From Candidatus Limnocylindrales bacterium (GTDB taxonomy: Bacteria; Desulfobacterota; Binatia; UBA1149; CAITLU01), in assembly GCA_035571835.1 (NCBI GenBank), contig DATNBU010000017.1, positions 106,687 to 170,686 on the forward strand: a stretch of 64,000 nucleotides of DNA. The letters are read 5' to 3'. Under the pieces are notes generated by a model. It was not told the origin of the DNA. It saw only the letters and a list, made by a program, of their open reading frames with translations, and did no database searches. Below are positions 1,897 through 40,286 of this stretch, in pieces. The first letter of the stretch is position 1. Each line of letters begins with the position of its first letter. Position numbers and translations under genes: made by a program.

Positions 1897-2013
1897 CCAC
1901 TCGGTCTAAATCGACACTCAACTTCCCTTGAGGTAAAGTGTTGTGAAAACATGGCTGCTCTCCTGCGTTGCTGAAGACTCCGTACTGGACGAGTCGGCCG
2001 AGGGGCCGACGAG

Positions 2014-2823
2014 ATGGGCCAGTGGGTCAAGAAAGAATACAGCAACAAACGGATCAACGATGCCGCGGCACAACTTGCGCCTTGGTGGCTTCGTCCAGAC
2101 CGCTCCGCTGCAGACGCAATGGCAGAGGCATACGACGTCGTCGATAACTGGCGGGCTTCACACTCCTTTCCCCTCAACCACTTCCAAGATTCACTGAGGA
2201 AACGGTCACGAAAGGTCGATTCGAATGTCATCGTAGCGCGGCGGCTTAAACGCATGCCGTCCGTGTTAGCAAAGCTCGCTAGGTCTCCCTACCCGGTGAC
2301 AACTATGCAGGATCTAGGCGGCTGTCGCGCGATATTAGGCTCTATGCGTGAGGTTAACGCTGTCCTCGACACATTTATTGGTGAGCCGTCCCTATTTCCG
2401 CTGGAAGGGACTCCGCGTCATTACAATTACATACAGAAACCAAAAGCAGACGGTTATCGAGGTATTCACATCGTTGGCCGCTACAAAGCCAAGTCGCAGC
2501 AAACAAGCTTTTGGAGTGGGTATAGGATTGAGATTCAACTCAGGACCGTCCTGCAGCACGCGTGTTCGACAGCCGTTGAAACAGTCGCGACATTTACTGG
2601 GTTTCCACTCAAATTCGGCAAAGGACCGGATGACTGGAAGCGGTTTTTTGTGCTCGCCTCTTCTGCCTTCGCGATTCTCGAGCGCAGCCCCCTCTGCCCG
2701 GGAGCCCCTGAAGACTCCGAAGAAGATACAGCCTCGACCGCTCCCCTCCCCTTCGTCGTCGGGTCTTTCCCCGCTCGGAGCGCCGCCGAAGCGCCGGACG
2801 TTTACGGTGCCTGGCTCCCTTAA
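2014..2823 (+). CDS. RelA/SpoT-domain nucleotidyltransferase, stand-alone small-alarmone-synthetase-like (toxSAS-like), 269 aa
   Basis: Synthetase-fold motifs are present in canonical order: basic ATP-binding stretch RRLKRMPSVLAKLAR, DLGGCRAIL (the DxxGxR-type G-loop), NYIQKPKADGYRGIHIV, and the diagnostic EIQLRT. No HD hydrolase domain. A GAGGGG RBS-like purine run lies 8-13 nt upstream. The gene sits in the low-GC island. Confidence 0.75.
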   Translation: MGQWVKKEYSNKRINDAAAQLAPWWLRPDRSAADAMAEAYDVVDNWRASHSFPLNHFQDSLRKRSRKVDSNVIVARRLKRMPSVLAKLARSPYPVTTMQDLGGCRAILGSMREVNAVLDTFIGEPSLFPLEGTPRHYNYIQKPKADGYRGIHIVGRYKAKSQQTSFWSGYRIEIQLRTVLQHACSTAVETVATFTGFPLKFGKGPDDWKRFFVLASSAFAILERSPLCPGAPEDSEEDTASTAPLPFVVGSFPARSAAEAPDVYGAWLP

Positions 2824-3099
2824 AAGCTGAGTCATCATGACTCCCACAGTACATGTTCGTGAAGGATCAGATCGTCGCAAACCTTCTGACCCGGAGACTA
2901 CGGCGGCTTGATGACCGGCGGGCGGCCTGCCCCGGAGTCGGATCGTCGTATGGCAATGCGGCCCCCAGGTGCCTTGCCGACGCCCACAACTGGCCCGGCC
3001 AAGGGGCTTCGGGTTTCTCTTAAGTTGGCCACAGCAGTATGGATCTCAGTAGGTGGTTTTTATCGCACAGGGGACGTATTCCAGCTATGAATCCTGTAC

Positions 3100-3140
3100 A
3101 TTACTTGCCAGCAGTGGCCTTGGCATATATAGAGGCGCGT
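3100..3140 (+). promoter_or_regulatory. Putative sigma70-like promoter (TTGCCA-N15-TATATA) with overlapping TGCCA-N10-TGGCA inverted repeat
   Basis: Read directly in the AT-richer spacer between the RelA/SpoT-like gene and the small ORF. Spacer length is suboptimal (15 nt). Confidence 0.2.
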
Positions 3141-3176
3141 TGACTCTCGCCGACTCGGGCGCATAGGGAAACCGCA

Positions 3177-3362
3177 ATGACCTCCAAGACTGTAATCTAC
3201 TCAAGTCCGCGTCTAGCTGAAGCGGTTGGGAAGAAGAGCGCCACTGCGCAGCAGGGATCATTCGAGGTGCAGATTCGTCGGGTCAGGGATGTGCCAAGAT
3301 ACCTGCGGCGACTCCGGGAAATGAAGGACAGCGCGAAGCATAGCGTTCTGCTCTTCCGTTAG
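3177..3362 (+). CDS. Hypothetical small basic protein (61 aa), candidate cognate partner/antitoxin of the adjacent RelA/SpoT-like gene
   Basis: ORF with a GGGAAA RBS-like sequence 6 nt upstream of ATG, preceded by the candidate promoter. Arg/Lys-rich C-terminus (RRVRDVPRYLRRLREMK). No recognisable family. Confidence 0.3.
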   Translation: MTSKTVIYSSPRLAEAVGKKSATAQQGSFEVQIRRVRDVPRYLRRLREMKDSAKHSVLLFR

Positions 3363-3390
3363 CCCCTCACCCTCCGCGTCTCCTCCTCTC

Positions 3391-4986
3391 ATGCCGCAGC
3401 CATCGTCCGCTCCGCGGCTATCCCCTTCCCTCACTTGCCGCGTCCATTCGATGGCGCGTCCTTTTTCAAATTTCGACTACGTCGAATCCCACTATCAGCG
3501 GGAACCCGCCATTCGTCGCATATTCTCGCAAGCACGAATGCATCATGCCCAATCCTTCGCGGTCGAGGACATCGAAGCAGACGGACTGGTCGCTGACGAA
3601 AACGCGGAAATCCATTCGTTCCTGGCGTCCTACCAAATGACAGGCCTGCAGCGTCTCTCGTTCTGGACCGCTCCCAATGACGCTGTAGAGAATGGAAATA
3701 TCAACAGCGAAAATCTTGTCGGATACGCCGTCGTCAAAAAAGACAGAGTTCCGTCACGACAGAGTCTTGCAAATGGATCATGGCATGTTTTCGAGTCGGT
3801 AATTCGGAAATACCCGGATCGACACAATTACATACCAGCCAATCCCAAATTCCCCGTAGTTTTCGGAACCAGACAGTTCCAGCTGCAAGGGGCTCTCTAT
3901 TGCCAACAAAACGGTTTGAACAAATCTTGTGCTCAGGTCGCGATTCGAAGTTTACTAGCCACGATCTCACCTGAACTCGATATTTCGTATTCGCAGTTGA
4001 ACGCGATCGCTCGCAACTATCCGCCGCTGACGCCAAGCGAAGGGCTCAGCGTTCAACAGATTAGTGGAATATTTGATAAGCTAGGAATGAAATATACGGC
4101 AATCGAATACGGTGAAGACGAATCGAGTAGCGGTGGTAGTGACAGTCCAACTGATCGCGCGGCCTTCCCTTACCAGAAGTTTCTTTACGCGGGAGTCGAG
4201 GCTGGCGCCGGAGCGTTGCTTGGATTTCGGCGCGATGCGGCAGAGCCCGCCGAACGTTCTCATATCATCCCATTCTTCGGCCATACATTTAACAGCGATA
4301 CTTGGGTTGTGAATGCAGATTCTGGCTACTTCTCAATCGGCGAGGCAATACGATACATCCCCAGCGATGCTTGGGTGAACAGTTTCATCGGTCATGACGA
4401 TAACTACGGATCTAATTTCTGCGTTCCGCGTTTGTACGTAAAACCACAAAACGTAGGGTACGTGCTCGCACTGCATAAGGCAGGATTTGGAACTAGTGGT
4501 ATTGAGGCCGAAGCAATAGGGAGTGAGTACGTTTATGCGCTACTGGGCGTAGAGACGATTAAGGATTCAACAAATCCTTGGCTCAGAAGGCTAGTCGCTT
4601 TTGCGGACCAACAGCGCGTCGTAATACGTGCAGTACCACTTACTCGAGATGAATATGTGTCACATCTGAATGCTGCTCAGGACTGGGAATGGAATCGAGA
4701 GCACTCCTCTACGCGTGAAGTAATGAGAGCCCATCTACCGGAGCGACTTTGGATGATAGAGGTTTCTCTACCGGAACTCTTCCCAGCAAATCATCGAAAA
4801 CTGGGAAGCATACTATTGAATGGGGACGGAGAGTTCGGGGAAGATCTTGACCTCTCCGAGTTCGTCTTTGCCCAATTTCCTTCGATAATCGTCTTCGCTC
4901 GTGGCTTGAGCGCAGGTGGCACTCCGGAATTCACTTTCTCCGAGAGCAACCTCAAATCACATATCCCGGTTTATCCGGGCGAGTAA
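3391..4986 (+). CDS. Hypothetical protein, 531 aa, no recognisable family (possible papain/C39-like Cys-His core is speculative)
   Basis: Long uninterrupted ORF in the low-GC island with coding-like codon periodicity. Alternative in-frame starts at 3451 (MARPF) and further downstream. No convincing RBS at 3391, so the start is uncertain. Confidence 0.6.
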   Translation: MPQPSSAPRLSPSLTCRVHSMARPFSNFDYVESHYQREPAIRRIFSQARMHHAQSFAVEDIEADGLVADENAEIHSFLASYQMTGLQRLSFWTAPNDAVENGNINSENLVGYAVVKKDRVPSRQSLANGSWHVFESVIRKYPDRHNYIPANPKFPVVFGTRQFQLQGALYCQQNGLNKSCAQVAIRSLLATISPELDISYSQLNAIARNYPPLTPSEGLSVQQISGIFDKLGMKYTAIEYGEDESSSGGSDSPTDRAAFPYQKFLYAGVEAGAGALLGFRRDAAEPAERSHIIPFFGHTFNSDTWVVNADSGYFSIGEAIRYIPSDAWVNSFIGHDDNYGSNFCVPRLYVKPQNVGYVLALHKAGFGTSGIEAEAIGSEYVYALLGVETIKDSTNPWLRRLVAFADQQRVVIRAVPLTRDEYVSHLNAAQDWEWNREHSSTREVMRAHLPERLWMIEVSLPELFPANHRKLGSILLNGDGEFGEDLDLSEFVFAQFPSIIVFARGLSAGGTPEFTFSESNLKSHIPVYPGE

Positions 4987-5017
4987 TCGTTCCGACAGCT
5001 AGGCATCACAACACCGC

Positions 5018-6246: not shown

Positions 6247-7827
6247 TCACGCAGGTCCGGGCTCGGGCAGCTCGAGATCGATCGGCAGACCGTCGCTGCG
6301 CAGCAGCTCGAGCACGGCCGCAATGTCGCCGTCCTGCCGGCGATCCTGCTCGAGTGGCGGCACGCGGCGCCGAACCGCGTCGTGCAGCGTCGCTACGGCT
6401 TCAGGGACCGAGCCGCCGCTTCGCATGCGGAGGTCGACGGCCTGGCACGCGGCCAGCAGCGTAATCGTTGCGACCGTTTCGGCGAGCTCGACCACGCGAC
6501 GGGCTTCGCGCGATGCGAGCGTACCCATGCTGACCTTGTCCTGGTTGTGCGACTCGGTGCTGCGGCTGAAGACCGCAGCGGGAAGACTCGTCTTGGCCGC
6601 TTCGGCCGCGAGCGCCGACGCCGTGATCTGCATGGCCTTGAACCCGTGATGCGACACGCGCGGCGATGCGACCAGATTGGCCGGAAGACCGCCGCTGGTC
6701 TCCGGCAGGCACAGCAGCACGAGCTGGCGGTCGAGGAGGTCGGCCGCCGAAGCCATCGCGCCCTTGAGCGCATCGAGCGCGAAGACGACGTGCCCGCCGT
6801 AGAAATTTCCGCCGTGCAGCACGCGGCCGGATTCGGGATCGATGACCGGATTGTCGTTGACGCCGGCGATCTCGATGTCGAGCACTCGCCTCGCGAGCGC
6901 GCATGCATCGACGAGCACGCCGAGCACGTGCGGAGCGCAGCGCACCGAATAGCGGTCCTGCAGGCGAAGCGGCTCCGGGCTGGGGCCGCCGGCGAGGAAC
7001 GCGCGGATCCAGCTTCCGACTTCGACCGTACCGGCATGCGGCTTGAGGCCGAGAACCGCGTCGTCGAAGTGCTCGGCGTTGCCGAGCGTGGCCGCGCTCG
7101 TCATCGCGGTGATCGCCGCCGCGAGCTTCGCGAGCCGCTCGGCGCGCACCAGCACGAGGCTCGCGATGCCGGCCATCACGCTGGTGCCGTTCATCAGCGC
7201 GAGGCTTTCCTTGGGAGCCAGCACGAGCGGTGCAATTCCGGCCGCGGCGAGCGCATCGCGCGCGGGCACCGTCTGACCGCTGACGACGGCTTCGCCTTCG
7301 CCCGCCAGCAGCCCGGCGACATACGCGAGCGGAGTCAGGTCACCGCTCGCGCCGACCGAGCCTTCTTCGGGAATTCGCGGCAGCACGCCGCGCGCGACCA
7401 GAAGCGCCAGATGCTCGAGCACCACCGGGCGGACCGCCGAGTAGCCGCGGGCAAGCGACGCGAGACGCACCGCAATGACCGCCGAGGCTTCGGTGGGGTC
7501 GAGGATTCGTCCGGTTCCGCAGCCGTGAAAGCGGAACAGGTTGCGGGCGAGATCGGCCTGCAGGTGCTCGGGGACATCGTTTTCGACCGATGCGCCGACG
7601 CCGGTGGAAACCCCGTAGACGGGTTCCCCGGCCGACAGGCATCGCTCGAGCACGGTGCGCCCGGCTTCGAGGCGGGCAAGGAATGCGGGGTCGGCGCTGA
7701 TCGCCGGCTCGGCCAGACCGAACGCGATCGAGACGACCTCGTCGACGCCGACCAGGTCCGACCCGAAGACGACGCGTGCTGCAGCCGGCACACCCGCCGC
7801 GGCTGCCTCGCTGGTACGGGCCGTCAT
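6247..7827 (-). CDS. Aromatic amino acid ammonia-lyase (HAL/TAL/PAL family) with MIO-forming Ala-Ser-Gly triad
   Basis: GSVGASGDLTPLAYVAG contains the ASG MIO precursor. Also MNGTSVMAG and NDNPVID motifs. Start trimmed to MTARTSEAAAAG (527 aa), a typical HAL/TAL size. Confidence 0.85.
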   Translation of the reverse strand: MTARTSEAAAAGVPAAARVVFGSDLVGVDEVVSIAFGLAEPAISADPAFLARLEAGRTVLERCLSAGEPVYGVSTGVGASVENDVPEHLQADLARNLFRFHGCGTGRILDPTEASAVIAVRLASLARGYSAVRPVVLEHLALLVARGVLPRIPEEGSVGASGDLTPLAYVAGLLAGEGEAVVSGQTVPARDALAAAGIAPLVLAPKESLALMNGTSVMAGIASLVLVRAERLAKLAAAITAMTSAATLGNAEHFDDAVLGLKPHAGTVEVGSWIRAFLAGGPSPEPLRLQDRYSVRCAPHVLGVLVDACALARRVLDIEIAGVNDNPVIDPESGRVLHGGNFYGGHVVFALDALKGAMASAADLLDRQLVLLCLPETSGGLPANLVASPRVSHHGFKAMQITASALAAEAAKTSLPAAVFSRSTESHNQDKVSMGTLASREARRVVELAETVATITLLAACQAVDLRMRSGGSVPEAVATLHDAVRRRVPPLEQDRRQDGDIAAVLELLRSDGLPIDLELPEPGPA

Positions 7828-8059
7828 CGTGCGACGTATAGGGCGGATACCGGCCCGAATCGAGCCGTCCGGGCCCGTCCGGGATGCGGCGCCACGAACG
7901 GCCGACGGCGGGCCGCAACTGATCGATTCGCGCGGTGCTGCAGGCCACAAACGCGCCGCAGGCCGTCGCGATCGGCCTTCGTTTTCCGCAGGAGATGAGG
8001 TATCGAAGCGGGTGGCAACGTCGCCAGGCGTCGACTGGTTCGAGGTGGAAACGAAAAGC

Positions 8060-8965
8060 ATGCGGCATGTGACGCTCGAGCGGCCCATCCGAGCGCACGC
8101 TGACCAGCCGGCCGCACGCGCGACCGGCGAAAGCGGCCGGTCGCTGTCGGTGCGCGGACCCTCATCGGATCGAGATGCCGCGTCCGGAGCCCTGGCCGCA
8201 GGCCGTCGGTACTGGCGGCAGATCCGCCTCGCATGCTCGTTTGCCCAGTTCGGGGTGACTGCGCTCGCGGTTGCGTTCGTCGTCGCACCGGTCGTGCGCC
8301 TCTCGGCGGCCTCGAGCGAGCAGGCCGAGATGGCGGTGCAGCGCGCGATCCGGCGCGCCTATGCGTTCTCGGTCGCGCTCTGGAGGCTCGTCGGGATCTT
8401 CCGGCTGGACGCACGCGGCCTGGCCGGGCTCGCGGACTGCGGCCCGTGCATCGTCGTCGCGAACCATCCGACGCTGGTCGACGTGGTCCTGATCGGATCG
8501 GTCCTCGAGCAGATGGACTGCATCGTCAATGCGGGCTGGACCGCGAAGAGCCCGTTTCTGGCCCGCGCCATCGAGGTGGCCGGGTACGTGCGCAACGACG
8601 GCGGCGTTGCGGTCGTCGAGCAGTGTGCGCGGCGCCTGCGTTCGGGACGGCGGCTGCTGGTGTTCCCGGAAGGCACGCGGTCGCCGTGGGGAAGTTTTGG
8701 AAAGTTCCATCGCGGTGCGGCGCATATCGCGCTCGCCAGCGGCGCTCCGCTGGTTGCGGTGGCGATCCGCTGCCGCCCGCGGATGCTTGGAAGCGGCCGC
8801 AAGTGGAGCGACACCGACGGCCGCCGGCCCGCCTACGAGCTCGCGATTGCCGGCCGGCTCGATCCGGCCGACTACGCCGGCATGACGACGCCGCTTGCCG
8901 CACGAAAGATGACCGACGACCTGCTCAGGATTTTTCTCGAGGAGCCCAATCTTGCAGACGCGTGA
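8060..8965 (+). CDS. PlsC-family lysophospholipid/1-acylglycerol-3-phosphate acyltransferase
   Basis: NHPTLVDV (NHxxxxD) and FPEGTRS motifs. Start chosen at the first Met after divergence from the ammonia-lyase; earlier alternative starts cannot be excluded. Confidence 0.75.
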   Translation: MRHVTLERPIRAHADQPAARATGESGRSLSVRGPSSDRDAASGALAAGRRYWRQIRLACSFAQFGVTALAVAFVVAPVVRLSAASSEQAEMAVQRAIRRAYAFSVALWRLVGIFRLDARGLAGLADCGPCIVVANHPTLVDVVLIGSVLEQMDCIVNAGWTAKSPFLARAIEVAGYVRNDGGVAVVEQCARRLRSGRRLLVFPEGTRSPWGSFGKFHRGAAHIALASGAPLVAVAIRCRPRMLGSGRKWSDTDGRRPAYELAIAGRLDPADYAGMTTPLAARKMTDDLLRIFLEEPNLADA

Positions 8966-9221
8966 CGAACTGACCGCAGACATCAAGGCCATGATCGTCG
9001 AAGTGCTCGCGCTCGAGGACATCCGGCCGGAGGAGATCGAAACCGACGCTCCGCTGTTCGTCGAAGGCCTCGGGCTCGATTCGATCGATGCGCTCGAGCT
9101 CGCGATGGGCCTCGAGGAAAAGTACGGCGTAATCATCACCGACGACCCCGAACGCAACGAGAAGATCTTCGCGTCGGTCGGCGCGCTCGCCGATCTCGTC
9201 ACGGCCGAACGCACCCGCTGA
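8952..9221 (+). CDS. Acyl carrier protein
   Basis: 89 aa, GLDSIDALEL phosphopantetheine-attachment motif. TTG start with GGAG 5 nt upstream, overlapping the end of the acyltransferase gene. Confidence 0.8.
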   Translation: MQTRDELTADIKAMIVEVLALEDIRPEEIETDAPLFVEGLGLDSIDALELAMGLEEKYGVIITDDPERNEKIFASVGALADLVTAERTR

Positions 9222-9225
9222 GGCC

Positions 9226-9474
9226 ATGACGCGCGAGCAACTCGAAGACGAGCTTCGCTCGATCCTGGTCGCCGAGTTCGAGCTCGCTCCCGAGAAGATC
9301 ACGCGCGAGGCACGCCTGGTCGAAGATCTCGATCTCGACAGCATCGACGGCGTCACGATCGTGGTTCGTCTCGAGTCGCGCCTGCGCGTGGTGATCGCCG
9401 ACGAGGAAATCCAGAAGATGCAGGCCGTGGGCGACATCGTCGACGCGCTCGCCGCGCGGCTCGGCATGGCCTGA
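9226..9474 (+). CDS. Acyl carrier protein (second copy)
   Basis: 82 aa, DLDSIDGVTIV motif. GAGG RBS upstream of the ATG. Confidence 0.8.
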   Translation: MTREQLEDELRSILVAEFELAPEKITREARLVEDLDLDSIDGVTIVVRLESRLRVVIADEEIQKMQAVGDIVDALAARLGMA

Positions 9475-22384: not shown

Positions 22385-25285
22385 TCAGCACCTGCAGGCC
22401 AGGTTCACCCCGGCATCGACCGCACGCTTGAGCGTGATCAGCGCGTCGGTTGCCGAGAGCGTGCCGTTGCCGTTGGCGTCGCAGATGCAGAACTTGCCGC
22501 CGCTGCACTGCGAACCGCCGACTGCCGCCTTGAGAATCGTCAGCGCGTCGGAAGCCTTGACGATGCCGTCCCCGCTGACGTCGCCGCAGATGCTGCCCGG
22601 CGGCAGCGACGTGGTCGTGGTGGTGGTGGTCGTCGTCGTGCAGTCGGGAATCGGGGTGTGGGAGCAATGCTGCGGTCCCTCCGTGCACGCATCGGTCGTG
22701 CACGGATCGTGATCGTCGCAGTCGCTGGTCGCGCTGCCCGTGCAGGCTCCGGCACTGCTGCACGTCGACGCCTGCGTGCACGGATTGCCGTCATTGCACG
22801 CGCTGCCGGTCGGATCGTGCGCCGTGCACGTCTTTGCCTGTTCGTTGCACGACTCGGAACAGTTCGCATCGTTGTCGGGGCCCGGGCACGGGCTTCCGGC
22901 GTGCTGGCTGCAGGCCCCGCCGAGGCACGTGTCGAGGCCGTTGCAGAAGATCCCGTCGTCGCACGGGATTCCGTCCGGATCCGGATTGGTGCAGCCGGGC
23001 AGGCCGTTGTCGCTGCACGATTCGGAGCAGTTGGCGTCGCCGTCGTTGCCGGGGCACGCAAGACCGATGTGCACGCTGCACTCGCCGAGGTGGCACTTGT
23101 CGACGCCGTCGCATGTCAGCCCGTCGCTGCAGTCGCTGCCTTCGGGATCGGCGCCGGTGCACGCATCGGCCACGTCGTCACAGGTTTCGGAGCAGTCGAT
23201 GTCGCCGTCCGGGCCGTCGCACGGATTGCCGGAATGCGAGCTGCAGGCGCCGCCGAGGCAGGTATCGGTGCCGTTGCAGAACAGCCCGTCGTTGCACGCC
23301 GAGCCGTTCGGATCGTTCGAAGAGCACGAATCGCCCGCTTCGTTGCACGACTCGGCGCAGTTGCCGTCGCCATCCGGGCCGGCGCACGGATCGCCGGCAT
23401 GCTGGCTGCAGCTCCCGTTCGAGCAGGTGTCGGCGCCGTTGCAGAACACGGCATCGTTGCACGCGGATCCGTTGGGATCGTTGGCAGTGCAGGCTTTTGC
23501 CTGCTCGTTGCAGACTTCGGAGCAGTCCGAGTCGCCGTCGGGCCCGTCGCACGGATTGCCCGGATGAACGCTGCACGAGCCGTTCGAGCATGCGTCGGCG
23601 CCGTTGCAGAAGAGCCCGTCGTTGCACGGCGCGCTATCGGGATCGGCCGCGGTGCAGGTCTTGAGCTCCTCGCTGCACGACTCGGCGCAGTTGGCATCGT
23701 TGTCGGGCCCTGCGCACGGGCTGCCGGCATGATGGCTGCAGGTTCCGTTCGAACAGGTGTCGGCCCCGTTGCAGAAAATTCCGTCGTCGCAGGCCGATCC
23801 GTTCGGATCGGGATTGGTGCATCCCGGCGATCCGCTGTCGCTGCACGATTCCGAGCAGTCGGCGTCTCCGTCGCTGCCGGGACACTCGACACCGACGTGT
23901 ACGCCGCATTCGCCGAGATGGCATTTGTCGGTGCCGTTGCATGCAAGTCCGTCGTCGCAGTCGGTGCCTTCGGGGTCCGCGCCGGTGCACGCATCGGCGA
24001 CGTCGTCGCATGTCTCCGAACAATCGTTGTCGCCGTCCGGTCCGTCGCACGGGTTGCCGGCGTGCGAGCTGCACGCGCCGGCCACACAGGTGTCCGGGCC
24101 GTTGCAGAACTGTCCGTCGTTGCACGGCGCGCCGGCCGGATCGTCGGCGGTGCACGAGTCGTTCGCCTCGTTGCACGACTCCGCGCAATTGGCATCACCA
24201 TCCGGGCCCGCGCACGGATTGCCGGCGTGCTGGCTGCAGCTTCCGTTCGAGCAGCTGTCGGGGCCGTTGCAGAATTCCGTGTCGTTGCAGGCGGACCCGT
24301 TCGGATCGCTGGCGGTGCACGCTTTTGCTTGCTCGCTGCAGCTTTCCGAGCAATCGCCATCTCCGTCCGGTCCCCCGCACGGATTGCCCGAGTGAATGCT
24401 GCACGATCCGTTCGAGCAGGTATCGGTGCCGTTGCAGAAGATCCCGTCGTTGCACGGGCTGCCGTTCGGGTCCGGCCCCGTGCACCCGCCGGCAGCGTCG
24501 CTGCACGACTCGGCGCAGTTCGAATCGCCGTCGGCGCCGGGGCACTGGACGCCGGAATGCTGCGTGCAGAATCCCGTCGCGCTGCAGCTGTCGGCGCCAT
24601 TGCAGAACAGGCCGTCGTTGCACGGCGATCCCTGGGCTTCGCGCTCGCAGCCGGCCGAGCAGCAATCGCCGCCGGCGGTGTTGCCGTCGTCGCACTGCTC
24701 GCCGATCTCGACCACGTGATTTCCGCAGTCGGTCTGGAAGAAGCCGACGTGCAGGAAATAGCGGTTGAGCTTCTTGCCGCCGTACGTCGATACGCGGATG
24801 TCGTACTGGCCGGCCGGCAGCCGGTGCTCCAGCCGCGAGCACAGCGAAATCCCCGAGTCGTCGTCGAACGCGATACACGGCAGATCGTCTCCGTACGACG
24901 TGCAGGTTCCGCCGGCGCCGGCCTGGCGCAGGGTGATGATCGTATCGCCCGGGCAGCCGCCGAATCCGTTGGTGGTCTCCGCGAGCAGCACGCGCGTGCC
25001 CGTGATCTCGAACGTGTAGGTGTCGAACGATCCGGCCGGAAAACCGCCTTCGAAGTCTCCGCCGCCGCTAACGTCGACCGGGATGAACAGCGTCGTGGTC
25101 GTGGTTCCCGGCAGCGCAGTCGTGGTCGTCGTCGAAGCGAAGATCTGCGCGTGCGCCTGTCCCGGCGCCAGAGTGGTCGCGAGGATGGTTGCCGGGATGC
25201 TCGCGCACATCGCCGCGAGCGTCAGATCCGCCATCACCAGGCGGCGCAGCATCGGTGCCGGGCCGCGCGATCTCGGGAATGTCAT
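22385..25285 (-). CDS. Secreted cysteine-rich repeat protein (Myxococcus-type Cys-rich repeat, ~12 tandem 55-aa units) with C-terminal dockerin-like domain
   Basis: Start trimmed to MTFPRS (GAGGAAA RBS), followed by a signal peptide. CGNHVVEIGEQCDDGNTAGGDCCSAGCE matches the Myxococcus cysteine-rich repeat consensus. The C-terminal GDVSGDGIVKASDALTILKAAV and CDANGNGTLSATDALITLKRAV are dockerin calcium-binding repeats. Confidence 0.75.
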   Translation of the reverse strand: MTFPRSRGPAPMLRRLVMADLTLAAMCASIPATILATTLAPGQAHAQIFASTTTTTALPGTTTTTLFIPVDVSGGGDFEGGFPAGSFDTYTFEITGTRVLLAETTNGFGGCPGDTIITLRQAGAGGTCTSYGDDLPCIAFDDDSGISLCSRLEHRLPAGQYDIRVSTYGGKKLNRYFLHVGFFQTDCGNHVVEIGEQCDDGNTAGGDCCSAGCEREAQGSPCNDGLFCNGADSCSATGFCTQHSGVQCPGADGDSNCAESCSDAAGGCTGPDPNGSPCNDGIFCNGTDTCSNGSCSIHSGNPCGGPDGDGDCSESCSEQAKACTASDPNGSACNDTEFCNGPDSCSNGSCSQHAGNPCAGPDGDANCAESCNEANDSCTADDPAGAPCNDGQFCNGPDTCVAGACSSHAGNPCDGPDGDNDCSETCDDVADACTGADPEGTDCDDGLACNGTDKCHLGECGVHVGVECPGSDGDADCSESCSDSGSPGCTNPDPNGSACDDGIFCNGADTCSNGTCSHHAGSPCAGPDNDANCAESCSEELKTCTAADPDSAPCNDGLFCNGADACSNGSCSVHPGNPCDGPDGDSDCSEVCNEQAKACTANDPNGSACNDAVFCNGADTCSNGSCSQHAGDPCAGPDGDGNCAESCNEAGDSCSSNDPNGSACNDGLFCNGTDTCLGGACSSHSGNPCDGPDGDIDCSETCDDVADACTGADPEGSDCSDGLTCDGVDKCHLGECSVHIGLACPGNDGDANCSESCSDNGLPGCTNPDPDGIPCDDGIFCNGLDTCLGGACSQHAGSPCPGPDNDANCSESCNEQAKTCTAHDPTGSACNDGNPCTQASTCSSAGACTGSATSDCDDHDPCTTDACTEGPQHCSHTPIPDCTTTTTTTTTTSLPPGSICGDVSGDGIVKASDALTILKAAVGGSQCSGGKFCICDANGNGTLSATDALITLKRAVDAGVNLACRC
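22560..24540 (-). repeat. Coding tandem repeat array (~165-bp unit x ~12, with a higher-order ~5-unit duplication)
   Basis: Units 4-6 and 9-11 are nearly identical at protein level (e.g. CSETCDDVADACTGADPEG appears twice). The array generates many spurious long ORFs in other frames, including a 1325-aa antisense ORF. Confidence 0.7.
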
Positions 25286-25298
25286 CGCTTTCCTCTGG

Positions 25299-26144
25299 TC
25301 ACGGAAGAATTCTCGACGCGGCGAGCGCAGGGATCGCTGCCGGCGCGGCGTTCGTGGCCGCCGTCCCTCCACGCAGCCGCTCGCGGAAGAAACCGATCAC
25401 GCGCGTGACGGCTTCGCGGGTCGGCTCACCGTCCCTGTCGATCAGATGCTCGGTCAGCACGCTGTGCGCCTGCTTCTGCAGCGCATCCGGATTCGCGCAG
25501 GAATCCTCGAGCTCGATCCCCTCGAATGCGCTGCCGATCTCGCGGCGCAGGGTTTCGAACTTGGATGCCGGCGACATCGGATCACCCTTGAACCGGAGCG
25601 CGAGGACCTTCTCGCCGTCGAGACACCGCTGCTTCAGGCAGGTGAGCTCTTCGGGCGAGACATGAAGCGCCTTGCCGTGGGCGCGGCTGACACAGAACGG
25701 CATCGACGGCTGCGACAGCACGGGCGCCTTCAGGCACGGCTCCATCATCATCGCGAGCGCGAAGTTGCCCGAAAAGCACATGCCGAGCGCGCCGACCGGT
25801 CCGCCGCCGGTCTCCGCCGAAGCGTGGCGCGCAAGCGCGCGCAGCCAGACCGTGATCGGGCTCGAGCGGTTGGACGCAAGCACCGCGAACTCGCGGCTGA
25901 CGCAGACGCGCGCAATCGATGCGAGGCCGTAGGCGAGCGTCGGCTCGCGGCCGGCCTCGCCGACCAGAAGCGGCATGTACACGCGGAATCCGGCCTCGAC
26001 GATCCAGTCGGCAAAGCGCACGACTTTCGGAGTGACGCCCGGAATCTCGTGCATGACGATGACCGCCGGGCCGTCGCCGCGAACATAGACAGGTTTCGTC
26101 GTTCCCTCGTGCGAGAAGTCGGAGCGGCGGTAGTCGGCGAGCAT
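25299..26144 (-). CDS. Dienelactone hydrolase-family alpha/beta hydrolase
   Basis: DLH-like length and GMCFSGNFA nucleophile elbow. Only 13 nt upstream of the Cys-rich protein start, so probably co-transcribed. Confidence 0.7.
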   Translation of the reverse strand: MLADYRRSDFSHEGTTKPVYVRGDGPAVIVMHEIPGVTPKVVRFADWIVEAGFRVYMPLLVGEAGREPTLAYGLASIARVCVSREFAVLASNRSSPITVWLRALARHASAETGGGPVGALGMCFSGNFALAMMMEPCLKAPVLSQPSMPFCVSRAHGKALHVSPEELTCLKQRCLDGEKVLALRFKGDPMSPASKFETLRREIGSAFEGIELEDSCANPDALQKQAHSVLTEHLIDRDGEPTREAVTRVIGFFRERLRGGTAATNAAPAAIPALAASRILP

Positions 26145-28701: not shown

Positions 28702-30945
28702 CTACTTCATCGCATCGAACAGATCGACGTAGCTGTCGGTCCACAGCGCATGCTGCGCGGTGCCCGCAAGCCGCGAGCGTTCGCTCCAGCCGAATTCACG
28801 AACCAGCCGCTCGTGCAGCGCAGCATCGCCGGTCATCGCGTACCAGATGCTCGGGAAGCGTCCGGTCGTCCGCGAGACCTCCGGATCGACCACGCCGCGC
28901 GCCACCGCGAGCTCGAGGCCGAGCTCGCTGCCGATTCGCGTCAGGATCGGGTCGAGATCGAAAAGCCGGTTGCTGATGTGAAAGAACAGCACTCCGCCGG
29001 GCTTCAGCTTGTCGATGTAGAGCGCGACCGCTTCGCGCGTGATGAGGTGAAGCGGCACGAAGTCGCTGCTGAACGTGTCCATGACGAGGACGTCGTAGCG
29101 GGCCGGCGGCGTCTTCTCGAGCGACAGCCGCGCGTCGCCGAGCACGACGCGGCTCGGCTCTCCGGCGGAATCGCCGCGGCCGAGAAACGAGAAATACGTG
29201 CGCGCGATGTGCTCGACCTCCGGATCGATCTCGTAGTAGTCCCACGACTGTCCCGGTTGCCGGTAGGCGGCGAGCGCGCCGATGCCGAGACCGACGATGC
29301 CGGCCGCCGGTGCGCCGCCCGACTTTTCGAGATAGCGGCCGATCGGCGAGTCGCGGTGATAGTACGCGAGCGGCTCGCTGCGCCGCCCGGGATCGAGGCT
29401 CTCGACGCCGTGGACGGTGTTGCCGTGGAACAGCCGCCGGAGTCCGCCGCGGTCTTCGACGTGGTAGATCCCGTAGAACGTGCGCGAGCCGTAGACGTCG
29501 GCGGCATCGCCAGCGAAGATCGCCGTACCGAACGCCGCCAGCGCCAGCGCCGCCGTGCCTGTCGCAGCGGCAATTCGAAGCGGACGGCCGCGAAGCCACG
29601 CCGTCCACCGCGGCGCATCGTGGACGACGAACGCCGCAACGATCAGCGCCGCGGCGAACGCGAAGTCGATCGAATGCGACGCGAGCCAGCCGAACGCGAC
29701 CGGCGCGACGAGGCCCACCAGCACGCTGCCGAGCCATCCGCCGAGCGAAATCGAAAGATAGAACGTGCCGAGGAATCGCGGATCCGCGGGCCGGCCGCGG
29801 ATCAGCCGGTCGTGGCACATCATGCATGCGACGAACAGGATTGCGTTCTGGAGCGCGATGGTCGCGATCTCCGGCCGGATCTGGCGGGCGATTGCCACGA
29901 ACGACGCGATCGCGATCGCAGTGCCGCCGAACGTCCACGCGCGAACGGCTCTTTCGGACGGCGGAGTCGGCGCGAAGCAGATGATCAGTGTGACCAGATA
30001 GAGCGTCAGCGGCAGGATCCAGATCAGCGGCACCGGTGCGTCGGTGGAGACGACGCTCGTCACCACCATCAGCAGCGCATTGGCTCCGCCGGAAAGCAGC
30101 AGCCATTCGGCACGCGCGGACGCACCGATTGGCGGAAGCCGTTCGTCGAGCGGCGACGCTCGCACCAGCTCCGGAGCAGGCGAATCGCGGGCGACGCGGC
30201 GGCTCGCCGCAGCCAGCGACCAGACACACCAGACGTTGAGCAGCGCATACAGTCCGTAGCCTGCGTACCAGAGCAGGAGCTGCGCAGGCAGGTCGAGGCG
30301 GCGTTCGATCACGAACGGGTACGTCATCAGTGCGGCGAGCGCACCGGCGTTGGAAAGGCCGTACAGGAAGTATGGGCTCGACCGGCGCGGATGATCGGTG
30401 GTCGCGAGCCACGCCTGGCAGATGACGCTCGTCGTCGACAGCGCGATGAACGGCACGCCGGCCGAGAGCATCAGTGCCGACAGGATGCGTGCAACCGGCG
30501 GCAGATCCGGCTGCCACAGGCGGAACGGAAAGAATGCGATCGGCACGAGCACGAACGCGACGTGCGCCCAGCGATAGCCGCCGCGCGCGATGCGCCCGGA
30601 CGCGGCTGCCGCATAAAGATACCCGGCAAAAAGCGCGCCCTGATAAAACATCAGGCACGTCGTCCATACCGATGCGCTGCTGCCGAACGCGGGCAGAAGC
30701 AGCCTCGCCATCACGAGCTCGACCTGGAACAGCAGGAACGAACCGACGAGCACCAGCAAGCCGAACGGCGCAGCCGAAAAAGCGGGCGCCGGCGCGGCCG
30801 CGGCCTCCCTCGCAGGCGGTGCCGCCGCGCTGCCGGCATTCGGCGCAGAGGAACGGACAGAAGAGTTGGAACGTTGATCGGGCATCCGTGATCGAAGTCG
30901 TCGCAGGCAATGCGCTCGACGCGGAGCGATCGTAACCGTCGTCAC
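28702..30945 (-). CDS. Membrane-embedded spermidine-synthase-like protein (polytopic N-domain fused to aminopropyltransferase-like C-domain)
   Basis: About 450 aa of transmembrane helices followed by a methyltransferase-fold spermidine-synthase-like region (VLVMDTFS ... GGVLFFHIS). Confidence 0.65.
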   Translation of the reverse strand: MTTVTIAPRRAHCLRRLRSRMPDQRSNSSVRSSAPNAGSAAAPPAREAAAAPAPAFSAAPFGLLVLVGSFLLFQVELVMARLLLPAFGSSASVWTTCLMFYQGALFAGYLYAAAASGRIARGGYRWAHVAFVLVPIAFFPFRLWQPDLPPVARILSALMLSAGVPFIALSTTSVICQAWLATTDHPRRSSPYFLYGLSNAGALAALMTYPFVIERRLDLPAQLLLWYAGYGLYALLNVWCVWSLAAASRRVARDSPAPELVRASPLDERLPPIGASARAEWLLLSGGANALLMVVTSVVSTDAPVPLIWILPLTLYLVTLIICFAPTPPSERAVRAWTFGGTAIAIASFVAIARQIRPEIATIALQNAILFVACMMCHDRLIRGRPADPRFLGTFYLSISLGGWLGSVLVGLVAPVAFGWLASHSIDFAFAAALIVAAFVVHDAPRWTAWLRGRPLRIAAATGTAALALAAFGTAIFAGDAADVYGSRTFYGIYHVEDRGGLRRLFHGNTVHGVESLDPGRRSEPLAYYHRDSPIGRYLEKSGGAPAAGIVGLGIGALAAYRQPGQSWDYYEIDPEVEHIARTYFSFLGRGDSAGEPSRVVLGDARLSLEKTPPARYDVLVMDTFSSDFVPLHLITREAVALYIDKLKPGGVLFFHISNRLFDLDPILTRIGSELGLELAVARGVVDPEVSRTTGRFPSIWYAMTGDAALHERLVREFGWSERSRLAGTAQHALWTDSYVDLFDAMK

Positions 30946-37544: not shown

Positions 37545-38874
37545 GACTCCGGATCACGCCGAGCTTCGGGCGCTGCTCGAAGCCGGCGATGAAGCCGCTG
37601 CTCGCGCCGCGATCGCCGACCTGCATCCTGCCGACCTTGCCGACGTTCTCGATGCGCTCGACCAGCCCGAGCGCCAGCTCCAGCTTTTCCGGCTGCTCGA
37701 GCCCGAGACCGCCTCCGAAGTCGTCCGCGAGATCAGCGAGCATTCCAAGGCCTCGCTGGTCGAGCTGCTGTCGGACGCGCGCCTGTCGGCCGTCCTCGAA
37801 CGGCTCGACACCGACGATGCCGCCGACCTGCTCGGCCATCTCGACGAGGACCGCAAGGACCGGCTGCTGCGGCGCACGAGCCCCGAGGCCCGCCGCAACG
37901 TCGCCGGGCTGCTGACCTACGCCGAAGACACCGCCGGCGGCATCATGAAGACCGAGGTCGCGACCGCGACCACGCTCTCGACCGTGCGCGAGGTCATCGA
38001 GTCGATCCGCCGCCACGCCGACGACTACCACGACATCCAGGAAATCTACGTCACCGACGAGCAGCGCCGCCTGAAAGGCGTCGTCCCGCTGCGCGAGCTG
38101 CTGCTGTTCGACGACGAGACGCCGCTCGAGCGCTTCATGCAGACCGAAACGGTCCCTGTCGACGTCGACATGGACCAGGAAGAAGTCGCGCGCGTGTTCG
38201 GCAAGTACGACCTCCTGTCGGTGCCGGTGCTCGACTCGCTCGGTCGCGTCGTCGGCCGCATCACCGTCGACGACATCGTCGACGTCATCGCGGAAGAGGC
38301 CACCGAGGACATCCTGAAGCTCGCCGGCGTCGGCGACGAAAGCTTCGTCGGCGCCAGCCCGTTCGATGCGGTCCGCTCGCGGTTGCCGTGGCTCGTATTC
38401 AACTTCGCGACCGCCGGTCTCTCGGCGCTGATCATCGCGCAGTTCGAGGAGACCATTCGCCAGGTCGCGGTCGCCGCAGCGCTGATGACGGTGATCTCGG
38501 CGATGGCCGGCAACGCCGGCACGCAGACGATGACCGTGCTCGTGCGCGCCATCGCGCTCGGCGAGGCGCGCGGTCCGCAGGCCCGCCGGCTGCTGGCCCG
38601 CGAGGCGCTGACGTCGCTGATCAACGGTGCGCTGCTCGGCCTTTCCGGCGCGCTGATCGTCTACCTGTGGCGAGGCGACGCGCGCGTCGCGGCCGTCATG
38701 GGGTTCGCGCTGCTCATCAACCTGCAGGTATCGGCGGCGGTCGGAACCATGGTTCCGCTGGTGCTGCGCAGCTTCTCGCTCGATCCGGCGGTCGCGTCGT
38801 CGGTCCTGGTGACGGCCGCGACGGACTGGGCAGGCTTTTTCGTGTTCCTCGCGCTGCTGAGCGTAATGCTGTGA
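37519..38874 (+). CDS. mgtE: Magnesium transporter MgtE
   Basis: N-domain, tandem CBS domains, and C-terminal transmembrane domain with the MAGNAGTQ signature. Confidence 0.85.
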   Translation: MSAPATETETPDHAELRALLEAGDEAAARAAIADLHPADLADVLDALDQPERQLQLFRLLEPETASEVVREISEHSKASLVELLSDARLSAVLERLDTDDAADLLGHLDEDRKDRLLRRTSPEARRNVAGLLTYAEDTAGGIMKTEVATATTLSTVREVIESIRRHADDYHDIQEIYVTDEQRRLKGVVPLRELLLFDDETPLERFMQTETVPVDVDMDQEEVARVFGKYDLLSVPVLDSLGRVVGRITVDDIVDVIAEEATEDILKLAGVGDESFVGASPFDAVRSRLPWLVFNFATAGLSALIIAQFEETIRQVAVAAALMTVISAMAGNAGTQTMTVLVRAIALGEARGPQARRLLAREALTSLINGALLGLSGALIVYLWRGDARVAAVMGFALLINLQVSAAVGTMVPLVLRSFSLDPAVASSVLVTAATDWAGFFVFLALLSVML

Positions 38875-40286
38875 CGACCGGAGTTTCCGAACCTGCGGGA
38901 AGCGCGTGGGCGACCGCCACGACCTCCGGCAGGCCGCTGCGTGTCGCGGTCGTCGGCGCAGGTCCGGCCGGGTTCTATACCGTCGAAGCGCTGCTCAAGC
39001 GCAAGGACGTCGATGTCGACGTGGATCTGTTCGAGCGCCTGCCCGCGCCGTACGGGCTGCTGCGTTACGGCGTCGCGCCCGATCATCCGAAGATCAAGTC
39101 GGTCTCGGTCGCATACGACAGGCTCTGCGAGGATCCGCGCGTGCGCTTTTTCGGCAACGTCCATGTCGGCCGGGGTCTTGCCGTGAGCGACCTTCTCGCG
39201 TGCTACGACCAGGTGGTGTTCGCGACCGGCTGCGAGACCGACCGCCGCATCGGTGTGCCGGGCGAAGAGCTCGCCGGCAGCCTTTCGGCGACCGCGTTCG
39301 TCGCCTGGTACAACGGACATCCGGAATACCGCTCGCTTCCGGTCGATCTGTCGACCGAACGCGTCGTCGTCGTCGGCATCGGCGATGTCGCGATGGACCT
39401 CGCGCGCATCCTGCTGCGCAACCCGGACGATCTCGCGAACACCGACATCGCCGATTACGCGCTGGCCGCGCTGCGCACGAGCCGCGTGCGCGAGGTCGTG
39501 ATCCTCGCGCGGCGCGGGCCTCGCCAGGCCGCATTTGCCGCCAAGGAGCTCGAGGACATCGCCGAGCTGCCGGGCGTCGGCGTCAGCGTCGATCGCGACC
39601 AGGTCACGCACGACCTCGAGACCGTCGATCCGCACCACGGAACCGAGCGCCACAAGCTCGAGGTGCTGGCCGCGATCGCGGACGCCGGTGACGGCGGCGC
39701 TCGACGCCGGCTCGAGATCCGCTTCCTTGCATCACCCGCGGCGATCCTTGGCGAGGGAGGCCGTACTGCCGCGATTCGCATCCAGCACAACGAGCTGATC
39801 CGCAGTGCCTCGAGCGACGTCGTCGCGCGCGGCACCGGCCGCTACGAGACGATTCCGTGCGGGCTCGTGCTGCGCTCGGTCGGCTATCGCGGGCTTCCGC
39901 TCGCCGGCCTGCCGTTCGACGAAGAGCGCGGCATCATCGCCAACGCGGGCGGGCGCGTGCTCGACGGCGGCGTAATCGTGCCGGGCCTGTACGTCTCCGG
40001 TTGGATCAAGCGCGGTGCGACCGGCGTCGTCGGTACCAACAAAGGCGATGCGGCGGCCACGGTCGCGAACATGCTGGAAGACGCGGCGACGACGCCCGCC
40101 CGCGATGCGGCATCCGTTTCGCGCGGCGCGATCGATCGCGTGCTCGGCGAACGCGGCATTCGCGTCGTCACCTGGGACGGCTGGAAACGCATCGACAGGG
40201 TCGAGCGCGAGCGCGGTGCGGCCACCGGCAAAGTCCGCGAAAAGCTGACCGACATCGAAGCCTGCCTCGAAGCCGCCGGCGTCTGA
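38871..40286 (+). CDS. FprA/adrenodoxin-reductase-like NADPH:ferredoxin reductase
   Basis: GTG start in GTGA overlap with the mgtE stop. VAVVGAGPAGFY FAD-binding and VVVGIGDVAMD NADP-binding Rossmann motifs. Confidence 0.75.
   Translation: MTTGVSEPAGSAWATATTSGRPLRVAVVGAGPAGFYTVEALLKRKDVDVDVDLFERLPAPYGLLRYGVAPDHPKIKSVSVAYDRLCEDPRVRFFGNVHVGRGLAVSDLLACYDQVVFATGCETDRRIGVPGEELAGSLSATAFVAWYNGHPEYRSLPVDLSTERVVVVGIGDVAMDLARILLRNPDDLANTDIADYALAALRTSRVREVVILARRGPRQAAFAAKELEDIAELPGVGVSVDRDQVTHDLETVDPHHGTERHKLEVLAAIADAGDGGARRRLEIRFLASPAAILGEGGRTAAIRIQHNELIRSASSDVVARGTGRYETIPCGLVLRSVGYRGLPLAGLPFDEERGIIANAGGRVLDGGVIVPGLYVSGWIKRGATGVVGTNKGDAAATVANMLEDAATTPARDAASVSRGAIDRVLGERGIRVVTWDGWKRIDRVERERGAATGKVREKLTDIEACLEAAGV

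Follow-up and report, generated by a model that had tools for sequence, protein, structure and literature searches.

The type I dockerins of cellulosomal enzymes (PF00404; for example C. thermocellum Xyn10B, 1OHZ chain B) are built from a duplicated loop-helix segment of about 22 residues. According to PMC10066038, which cites Peer et al. 2009, an adhesin role has been proposed for non-cellulosomal dockerins on large proteins, and the part of that article on Omnitrophota describes nine dockerins in a single giant open reading frame (ORF) that is likewise a proposed adhesin. Here we analyze a 64,000-nt stretch of DNA from a bacterium of Binatia type (contig DATNBU010000017.1 of assembly GCA_035571835.1, positions 106,687 to 170,686), referred to as the window and numbered from its first nucleotide. 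Its minus strand encodes a 966-aa protein in which eleven Cys-rich units separate an N-terminal domain from a C-terminal dockerin. With a probability of roughly 55%, we read the product of this gene as a modular, adhesin-like stalk protein located outside the cytoplasm, with a head of the PPC / collagen-binding type and a dockerin as attachment tag. Our literature searches returned nothing on Binatia dockerins or on the 55-aa repeat.

Results

The repeat gene is intact and under purifying selection

The repeat protein lies in a single long minus-strand frame (22385..25372). Its most plausible start codon, the ATG at 25285, follows the ribosome-binding site (RBS) GAGGAAAG and yields a 966-aa product (22385..25285, minus strand). 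The gene caller of the source metagenome contig (ENA ERZ27256655, k141_2541243, 317 kb) picked the identical ATG and 966 aa. The exact protein sequence is deposited in NCBI nr as HXC50688.1, "dockerin type I domain-containing protein", and is present on more than one assembled contig. A homolog from a separate assembly (P0004; GCA_034680565.1, 955 aa, 92% identical) is colinear with the window protein across all 11 units and differs from it by substitutions and one 11-aa leader deletion, with no other difference. Over 901 codons the two genes have diverged by 0.305 at synonymous (dS) and 0.031 at nonsynonymous sites (dN), giving a dN/dS of 0.10, and 112 of the 112 mature Cys residues are kept. 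The repeat gene is thus real and under purifying selection.

A preliminary description of this locus, made from its sequence, had called the protein giant and its DNA repeats near-identical and prone to assembly collapse. At 966 aa the protein is large, and the repeats are far from identical: unit pairs share 57-85% of their DNA sequence (57-76% outside the partners of the five-unit duplication described below), the array as a whole shows 66% matches and no exact direct repeat within the gene is longer than 24 nt, which makes collapse implausible. Several contigs that were assembled separately moreover contain the 11-unit array, which occurs on them in two sequence variants, and cluster members show both variants on further large contigs. 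That the array is a collapsed or chimeric assembly, or the ORF a pseudogene, can therefore be given next to no weight, even though the source is a short-read metagenome (contig name k141_...) and tandem repeats can mis-assemble: against it stand the 24-nt limit on exact repeats, units no more than 85% identical in DNA, the independently assembled relative with the same 11 colinear units, the dN/dS of 0.10 and the conservation of every Cys.

The repeat array is built from an undescribed 55-aa unit

Tandem Repeats Finder reports one array (22842-24627) with a period of 165 nt, 10.8 copies, 66% matches and a score of 838. The period of 55 aa and the motif noted previously hold, while the count of about twelve is reduced to 11 full units and a degenerate twelfth, and each unit has eight Cys, not ten. 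The unit follows the consensus C-x-D-G-x-F-C-N-G-x-D-x-C-x2-G-x-C-x2-H-x-G-x-P-C-x-G-P-D-G-D-x2-C-x-E-S-C-x-E-x4-C-x3-D-P-x-G, with a Cys framework invariant across the 11 units and many conserved Asp, Asn and Glu residues per unit. The suspected higher-order duplication is present, units 2-6 matching units 7-11 over 828 nt, and its partners (unit i versus unit i+5) share 73-87% of their protein sequence and 75-85% of their DNA sequence. Beyond the array, the Cys-rich tail (aa 830-882) is kept in orthologs and the Thr10 linker that follows it differs in length among them. The Dictyostelium repeat profile PF00526 matches some homologs, with no match in the window protein.

An AlphaFold2 model of units 2-4, computed from a 41-row alignment of unit triplets, reached a predicted local distance difference test (pLDDT) of 94.6 and a predicted template modeling score (pTM) of 0.67, and shows two beta-hairpins per unit. 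Profile searches with the unit against PDB sequences gave a best E-value of 0.11 (rhamnose-binding lectins), which is not significant. In Pfam, the unit matched nothing apart from a marginal DUF7107 (15 of 41 windows) and Scytovirin (2 of 41 three-unit windows of homologs), and no match was found in NCBIfam with three-unit windows at E up to 1. The 55-aa unit is consequently undescribed in the Pfam, NCBIfam and PDB libraries searched. We rejected identity with disintegrins: Disintegrin (PF00200) had no Pfam match to the 55-aa unit, and the Disintegrin matches in the homolog P0024 lie on another repeat.

The lectin-type matches raise the question of whether the protein could be a soluble secreted binder and not an anchored stalk, for instance a multivalent lectin, a calcium or metal buffer or an inhibitor. 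The Scytovirin profile represents a Cys-rich lectin and reaches 6.8e-6 in the two homolog windows, the rhamnose-binding lectin profiles match weakly (E 0.11), and the many conserved acidic and Asn residues of each unit would suit such a role. For the window protein's own units, however, the lectin-type matches are not significant, and the signal peptide together with the conserved even number of mature Cys favors disulfides over metal thiolates. Given that the terminal sandwich and the dockerin described below fit an anchored modular protein better, we consider a soluble binder unlikely.

The protein carries a predicted Sec leader and a predicted beta-sandwich head

The predicted leader combines Arg residues at positions 5, 7, 14 and 15 with a hydrophobic core and an AHA cleavage site followed by Q. 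In the alignment, ortholog N-termini are likewise basic and then hydrophobic, mostly with an AxA-type site at the end. Other forms of export or anchoring were rejected. There is no lipobox, and the sole leader Cys lies within the 11-aa stretch absent from P0004, which speaks against a lipoprotein. The weak RR context and the unlikelihood of so disulfide-rich a protein being a Tat substrate speak against Tat export, and a PEP-CTERM or sortase-type anchor does not fit a protein in which a C-terminal transmembrane segment is not present. Directly after the signal peptide, the motif T5-x-[FL]-x-G-T5 is kept in seven of seven aligned orthologs. Such strictness (aa 47-64) is unusual for a simple linker.

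The AlphaFold2 model of the following domain contains eight strands with block-mean pLDDT values of 81-95 across residues 1-120. Foldseek comparison with the PDB identified the PPC domain of a B. anthracis collagenase (5sv5, E 2e-6, TM 0.72) and the collagen-binding domain of ColG (1nqj, E 3e-5), with TM scores on the target of 0.72-0.73 for matches of this type, and also the claudin-binding domain of C. perfringens enterotoxin. At the sequence level the window protein has a weak NF038127 match and no match to the Pfam PPC profile (PF04151) at E up to 10, while two paralogs do match that profile, P0047 with a score of 44.4 and P0005 with 25.8 against a cut-off of 25.9. Between head and array lies a single short Cys-rich repeat of myxobacterial type (aa 186-221), which is invariant in the alignment of the N-terminal region and modeled with low AlphaFold2 confidence. 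The corresponding myxobacterial repeat profiles (PF13948 DUF4215; TIGR02232) do not match the window protein, at E up to 10 in Pfam and, in NCBIfam, at E up to 0.1 for the whole protein and up to 1 for three-unit windows.

The C-terminal dockerin behaves like a modular tag of many secreted proteins

The C-terminal module scores 25.4-25.5 bits against Pfam Dockerin_1 (PF00404; cut-off 22.9) over aa 901-950 of 966. Together with the Sec-type leader, this upholds the earlier view of a secreted-type Cys-rich tandem-repeat protein with a genuine C-terminal dockerin. Two calcium-loop motifs, DVSGDGIVKASD and DANGNGTLSATD, are each followed by ALxxLK, a pattern kept in 25 homologs that suggests a helix after each loop, and the module has weak matches to solved dockerins. 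Six Cys residues (C2, C29, C35, C37, C66 and C68 of the module) are invariant in the 25-sequence alignment, the last two forming a CxC end, and their conservation suggests three disulfides that would staple the module. Six invariant Cys and a terminal CxC are not known from clostridial dockerins.

A word-indexed homolog search with the 72-aa dockerin as query gave no match and was replaced by a full hidden Markov model (HMM) scan. Searched against 1.84 billion cluster representatives, the module profile yielded 13,431 matches at E <= 1e-3 and 1,494 at E <= 1e-10. We scanned locally 148 of the best 150 listed matches. In 101 of these 148 the module lies 12 or fewer residues from the C-terminus, 65 of the 101 containing it as the sole copy, and 46 of the 148 have six Cys inside the last 72 residues. 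A hydrophobic N-terminus is present in 28 of 33 full-length single-copy proteins. The Pfam passengers of ten CxC-ending proteins are diverse and include Laminin_G_3, Kelch with beta-helix, lactonase propellers, PQQ propellers with Ig, DUF4215 and Lcl_C. The dockerin, initially regarded as unexpected here, is therefore ordinary for such organisms and behaves like a modular C-terminal tag on secreted proteins. That so many unrelated secreted proteins end in this module suggests that it is an anchoring tag used in common.

The same distribution could also arise if the six-Cys dockerin-like module were a C-terminal sorting or secretion signal for an export or attachment machinery, the window protein being one cargo among many. 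The position at the extreme C-terminus of unrelated passengers and the conserved CxC-COOH are compatible with this, as is the fact that no cohesin was found near eight loci or in the window (PF00963 was not found in the called genes of loci L001-L008). Both canonical calcium loops are kept, however, and the module scores as a dockerin. Many high-scoring profile matches carry several tandem or internal copies, which is atypical of sorting signals, and candidate machinery was not identified. A pure sorting signal hence appears improbable.

Repeat number varies between species

The window protein belongs to a family of at least 936 proteins that match at E <= 1e-5. The best matches agree with it in head and tail and have 5-22 units. 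Most carry the source label Candidatus Binatia, and some are labeled Limnocylindrales, Deltaproteobacteria, Nannocystaceae or Planctomycetota. In distant matches the unit is joined to reprolysin-type metalloproteases, FG-GAP, M23 peptidase, Laminin_G_3 and propeller domains. Within the syntenic slot we count 7 units (L010), 10 (P0017), 11 (window, P0004 and P0016) and 15 (L025 / P0015), and in one relative the gene is absent. The variation in repeat number that the preliminary description had anticipated is thus observed, here between species. The relative with the empty slot (L009:1194-3086) keeps MutS2 next to DLH, MipA, KAS and KAS_2, with 72 nt separating DLH from MipA. For the repeat gene this is a naturally occurring presence/absence polymorphism.

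Only the window / P0004 lineage has the five-unit duplication, which is found in neither P0016 nor P0017, and the units of the window protein show little one-to-one correspondence with those of P0016. Unit arrays have been remodeled independently in each lineage by gain and loss over evolutionary time, and the present array copies are old and diverged. Paralogs P0011 and P0013 occupy unrelated contexts with no DLH gene nearby. P0013 (L007:10382-12103, L008:10382-12103) and a second Cys-rich protein (573 aa, weak Disintegrin match) are arranged tail to tail inside a run of tryptophan-biosynthesis genes.

Co-occurrence does not support a partnership with the neighboring hydrolase

The gene immediately upstream encodes a protein of the dienelactone hydrolase (DLH) family, deposited as HXC50689.1, dienelactone hydrolase family protein. 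C123 (in GMC(F/L)(S/T)G), D188 and H227 are invariant in eight homologs and form a putative Cys-Asp-His triad, the residue roles being assigned from the alignment. The DLH stop and the ATG of the repeat gene are 13 nt apart on the same strand, a spacing that makes co-transcription plausible. At orthologous loci the spacing is 13-27 nt, or the two genes overlap by 4 nt. Five loci of the same clade (L001, L003, L004, L010 and L025; L002 is the window's own source contig) keep the order MutS2, DLH, Cys-rich gene, MipA, KAS, KAS_2. No terminator or promoter is predicted between DLH, the Cys-rich gene and MipA, and the 126-nt gap ahead of MipA folds like shuffled sequence (z 0.19). DLH and the Cys-rich gene are probably co-transcribed.

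It had been suggested that the two genes form a functional pair and that the dockerin implies a cellulosome-like cohesin system. While the 13-nt same-strand spacing, the lack of a predicted terminator-like site between the genes and the adjacency kept in the same-clade loci would agree with a pair, other observations do not. DLH has no signal peptide, so that the two products are expected in different compartments. Repeat units were found in only 2 of 48 species loci with a DLH homolog (L010 and L025), and among the other 46, which include Parvibaculum (about 69% identity) and two other Binatia loci, several lie on contigs that end within about 1 kb of DLH and allow no judgment. L009, whose DLH and KAS are 75% and 78% identical to those of the window, has an empty slot, and the two paralogs in unrelated contexts have no DLH nearby. 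Neither a carbohydrate-active enzyme nor a cohesin was detected among the window ORFs scanned. As a cellulosome component the protein would also be out of place, since it combines a PPC-like domain with Cys-rich repeats and no glycoside hydrolase or scaffoldin is present in the window ORFs scanned. The upstream position and plausible co-transcription stand, and a functional pair is largely refuted by co-occurrence and must be regarded as very unlikely. DLH is better described as a cytoplasmic neighbor, and the Cys-rich gene resembles a facultative insert located on the margin of an aryl-polyene-like biosynthetic cluster.

Genomic surroundings and host

The features of the locus are collected in Table 1. 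The aryl-polyene-like biosynthetic cluster extends over 109-22321, with the Cys-rich gene and DLH at its right edge. In addition to the lyase and carrier proteins listed in the table, it encodes an MMPL-type exporter, a LolA-like protein, a GT2 glycosyltransferase, an LpxL-type acyltransferase, an ApeP-like protein, a ketoreductase, a flavin adenine dinucleotide (FAD) enzyme, KAS_2, KAS and MipA.

Table 1. Features of the repeat gene and its neighbors. Positions refer to the window, residues to the 966-aa protein.
Feature	Position	Strand	Basis
Aromatic amino acid lyase, aryl-polyene-like cluster	6247..8088		
Two acyl carrier proteins, aryl-polyene-like cluster	8952..9474		
C-terminal dockerin, aa 900-966, protein end ...LACRC	22388..22588	(-)	Pfam Dockerin_1, alignment
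Thr10-SLPPGSI linker, aa 883-899	22589..22639	(-)	read from sequence
Degenerate twelfth unit and CxDxxxCTxDxC-type Cys-rich tail (9 Cys), aa 830-882	22640..22798	(-)	read from sequence
Array of 11 units, 55-56 aa, 8 Cys each, aa 222-829	22799..24622	(-)	Tandem Repeats Finder, unit table, identity matrices
Five-unit (828 nt) higher-order duplication, copy 2, units 7-11	22799..23626	(-)	direct repeats 828 nt apart
Five-unit (828 nt) higher-order duplication, copy 1, units 2-6	23627..24454	(-)	direct repeats 828 nt apart
Single short Cys-rich repeat, myxobacterial type (CGNHVVEIGEQCDDGN...CCSAGC; CGN...CDDGN...CC), aa 186-221	24623..24730	(-)	by eye
N-terminal beta-sandwich, PPC / collagen-binding-domain fold, ~aa 65-185	24731..25093	(-)	AlphaFold2 and Foldseek
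Thr-rich segment STTTTTALPGTTTTT, aa 47-64	25094..25147	(-)	alignment of orthologs
Predicted Sec signal peptide, aa 1-46	25148..25285	(-)	read from sequence
13-nt spacer with RBS GAGGAAAG	25286..25298	(-)	read from sequence; DLH stop TGA 25299-25301 to ATG 25285
DLH-family alpha/beta hydrolase, 281 aa	25299..26144	(-)	Pfam DLH PF01738, 34.2 bits, cut-off 21

Between the MMPL-type exporter and LolA-like genes lies a low-GC islet (1900-5000; 46-59% compared with 66-70% around it). One of its ORFs (2014..2823, plus strand) has a RelA_SpoT domain and matches the PADLOC candidate defense family PDC-S33 (E 1.8e-73), and another (3391..4986, plus strand, 531 aa) has no match. The islet looks like an acquired defense or toxin islet. 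Three further sizeable ORFs with coding-type GC content at third codon positions (GC3) have no Pfam match at E <= 1e-3 (28702-30945 and 38661-39731 on the minus strand, 57081-58532 on the plus strand), one of which encodes 747 aa and adjoins MutS2. No tRNA and no Rfam family is found in the window.

The presence of MipA and LolA-like genes in the window indicates a diderm host. NCBI places the metagenome-assembled genome carrying HXC50688.1/HXC50689.1 in Candidatus Limnocylindrales (Chloroflexota), while the syntenic relatives are labeled Candidatus Binatia. We treat the organism as Binatia-like, with this label conflict as a caveat.

Discussion

The modules of the window protein can be assembled into a model of an anchored, adhesin-like stalk. 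After Sec export, the 112 mature Cys residues could form about 56 disulfides, and the disulfide-bonded units may, judging from the predicted models, build a stiff, protease-resistant rod in which the Thr-rich stretches act as linkers. The C-terminal dockerin would serve as a shared, calcium-dependent attachment tag whose partner, a cohesin-like module or a different receptor, would sit in the matrix or on the surface of the cell, and the N-terminal beta-sandwich would be a ligand-binding head held off from the cell. The number of units would set the length of the stalk, which could shift by unit duplication and loss over evolutionary time.

Several points weigh against this model. The polarity from head to stalk to anchor is drawn by analogy and is not a result, and the disulfides are an assumption based on export and on the conservation of the Cys residues. 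No route across the outer membrane has been identified. The rigid rod rests on a predicted model because the unit fold lacks a significant structural match: Foldseek comparison of the unit model with the PDB gave a best E-value of 1.9, not significant, to ectodomains of ADAM / snake-venom metalloproteinases, and two of five AlphaFold2 unit models reached only about 59. Cohesin (PF00963) was not found in the window ORFs scanned with Pfam, and a tblastn search with the validated single-sequence query CipA cohesin 2 over 753 kb, a small part of the genome, returned a chance-level E-value of 0.71. The absence of a cohesin is a weak negative.

A broader and more speculative proposal, which we hold as tentative and would sooner doubt than accept, extends the anchored stalk to a whole system. 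The six-Cys CxC dockerin might be the address tag of a surface-display or assembly system that has not been described before and belongs to an uncultured lineage of diderms, the Binatia and their relatives, by which dozens of secreted proteins are placed on an unidentified receptor that could be a divergent cohesin or something new. The 55-aa unit might then be a new disulfide-rich fold used as a length-adjustable spacer.

Binatia-type bacteria are, to our knowledge, common in soils and have never been cultured, so that nothing is known of their surface proteins. The locus described here exemplifies cleanly a large protein family, with at least 936 relatives, whose repeat is in no domain database searched and matches no solved structure. 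If the tag is a general docking or sorting device, assembly of the cohesin-dockerin type would extend beyond cellulosomes into a Gram-negative-type phylum, and the tag would provide a handle for predicting the exoproteome of that phylum. At present the window protein is a well-annotated hypothetical protein and not a new mechanism, with familiar end modules around an undescribed repeat.

Comparison with described systems underlines this combination of familiar and unfamiliar parts. The head shares its beta-sandwich fold with PPC (5SV5) and the clostridial collagen-binding domain (1NQJ), but is only 16-18% identical to them, contains four Cys and is located at the N-terminus of a non-protease. 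DUF4215 (PF13948) and the Dictyostelium CTDC repeat (PF00526) are, like the units of the window protein, short disulfide-rich repeats of secreted proteins from related soil lineages. Homologs carry both, and one copy of each can be discerned by eye in the window protein, although neither profile matches it at E up to 10 and the dominant 55-aa, eight-Cys unit is a longer and distinct module. The disintegrin-like and Cys-rich domains of ADAM and snake-venom proteins (PF00200; 3G5C, 2E3X) are similarly extended, disulfide-stapled modules with little secondary structure, and such ectodomains are the top, non-significant Foldseek matches to the unit. The homolog P0024 has true Disintegrin repeats beside its 55-aa units. 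The best E-value of 1.9 and TM scores of 0.11-0.13 amount to no fold match.

With the type I dockerins of cellulosomal enzymes, the window module shares the duplicated loop-helix segment, the D-x-[DNS]-x-[DN]-G-x5-D calcium loop, the C-terminal position and a Pfam score above cut-off. It differs from clostridial cellulosomal dockerins, as generally known to us, by its six invariant Cys and terminal CxC, and from cellulosomal dockerins as a group by the diderm-type genes of its host, by a passenger of Cys-rich repeats in place of a carbohydrate-active enzyme and by a window in which no cohesin or cellulolytic genes are seen. The dockerin ORFs of Omnitrophota, as presented in PMC10066038, are similar in that they too encode large secreted proteins of organisms without cellulosomes for which an adhesive role is proposed. 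Compared with these, the window protein is distinguished by a single terminal six-Cys module that is common to unrelated secreted proteins and by its undescribed 55-aa unit.

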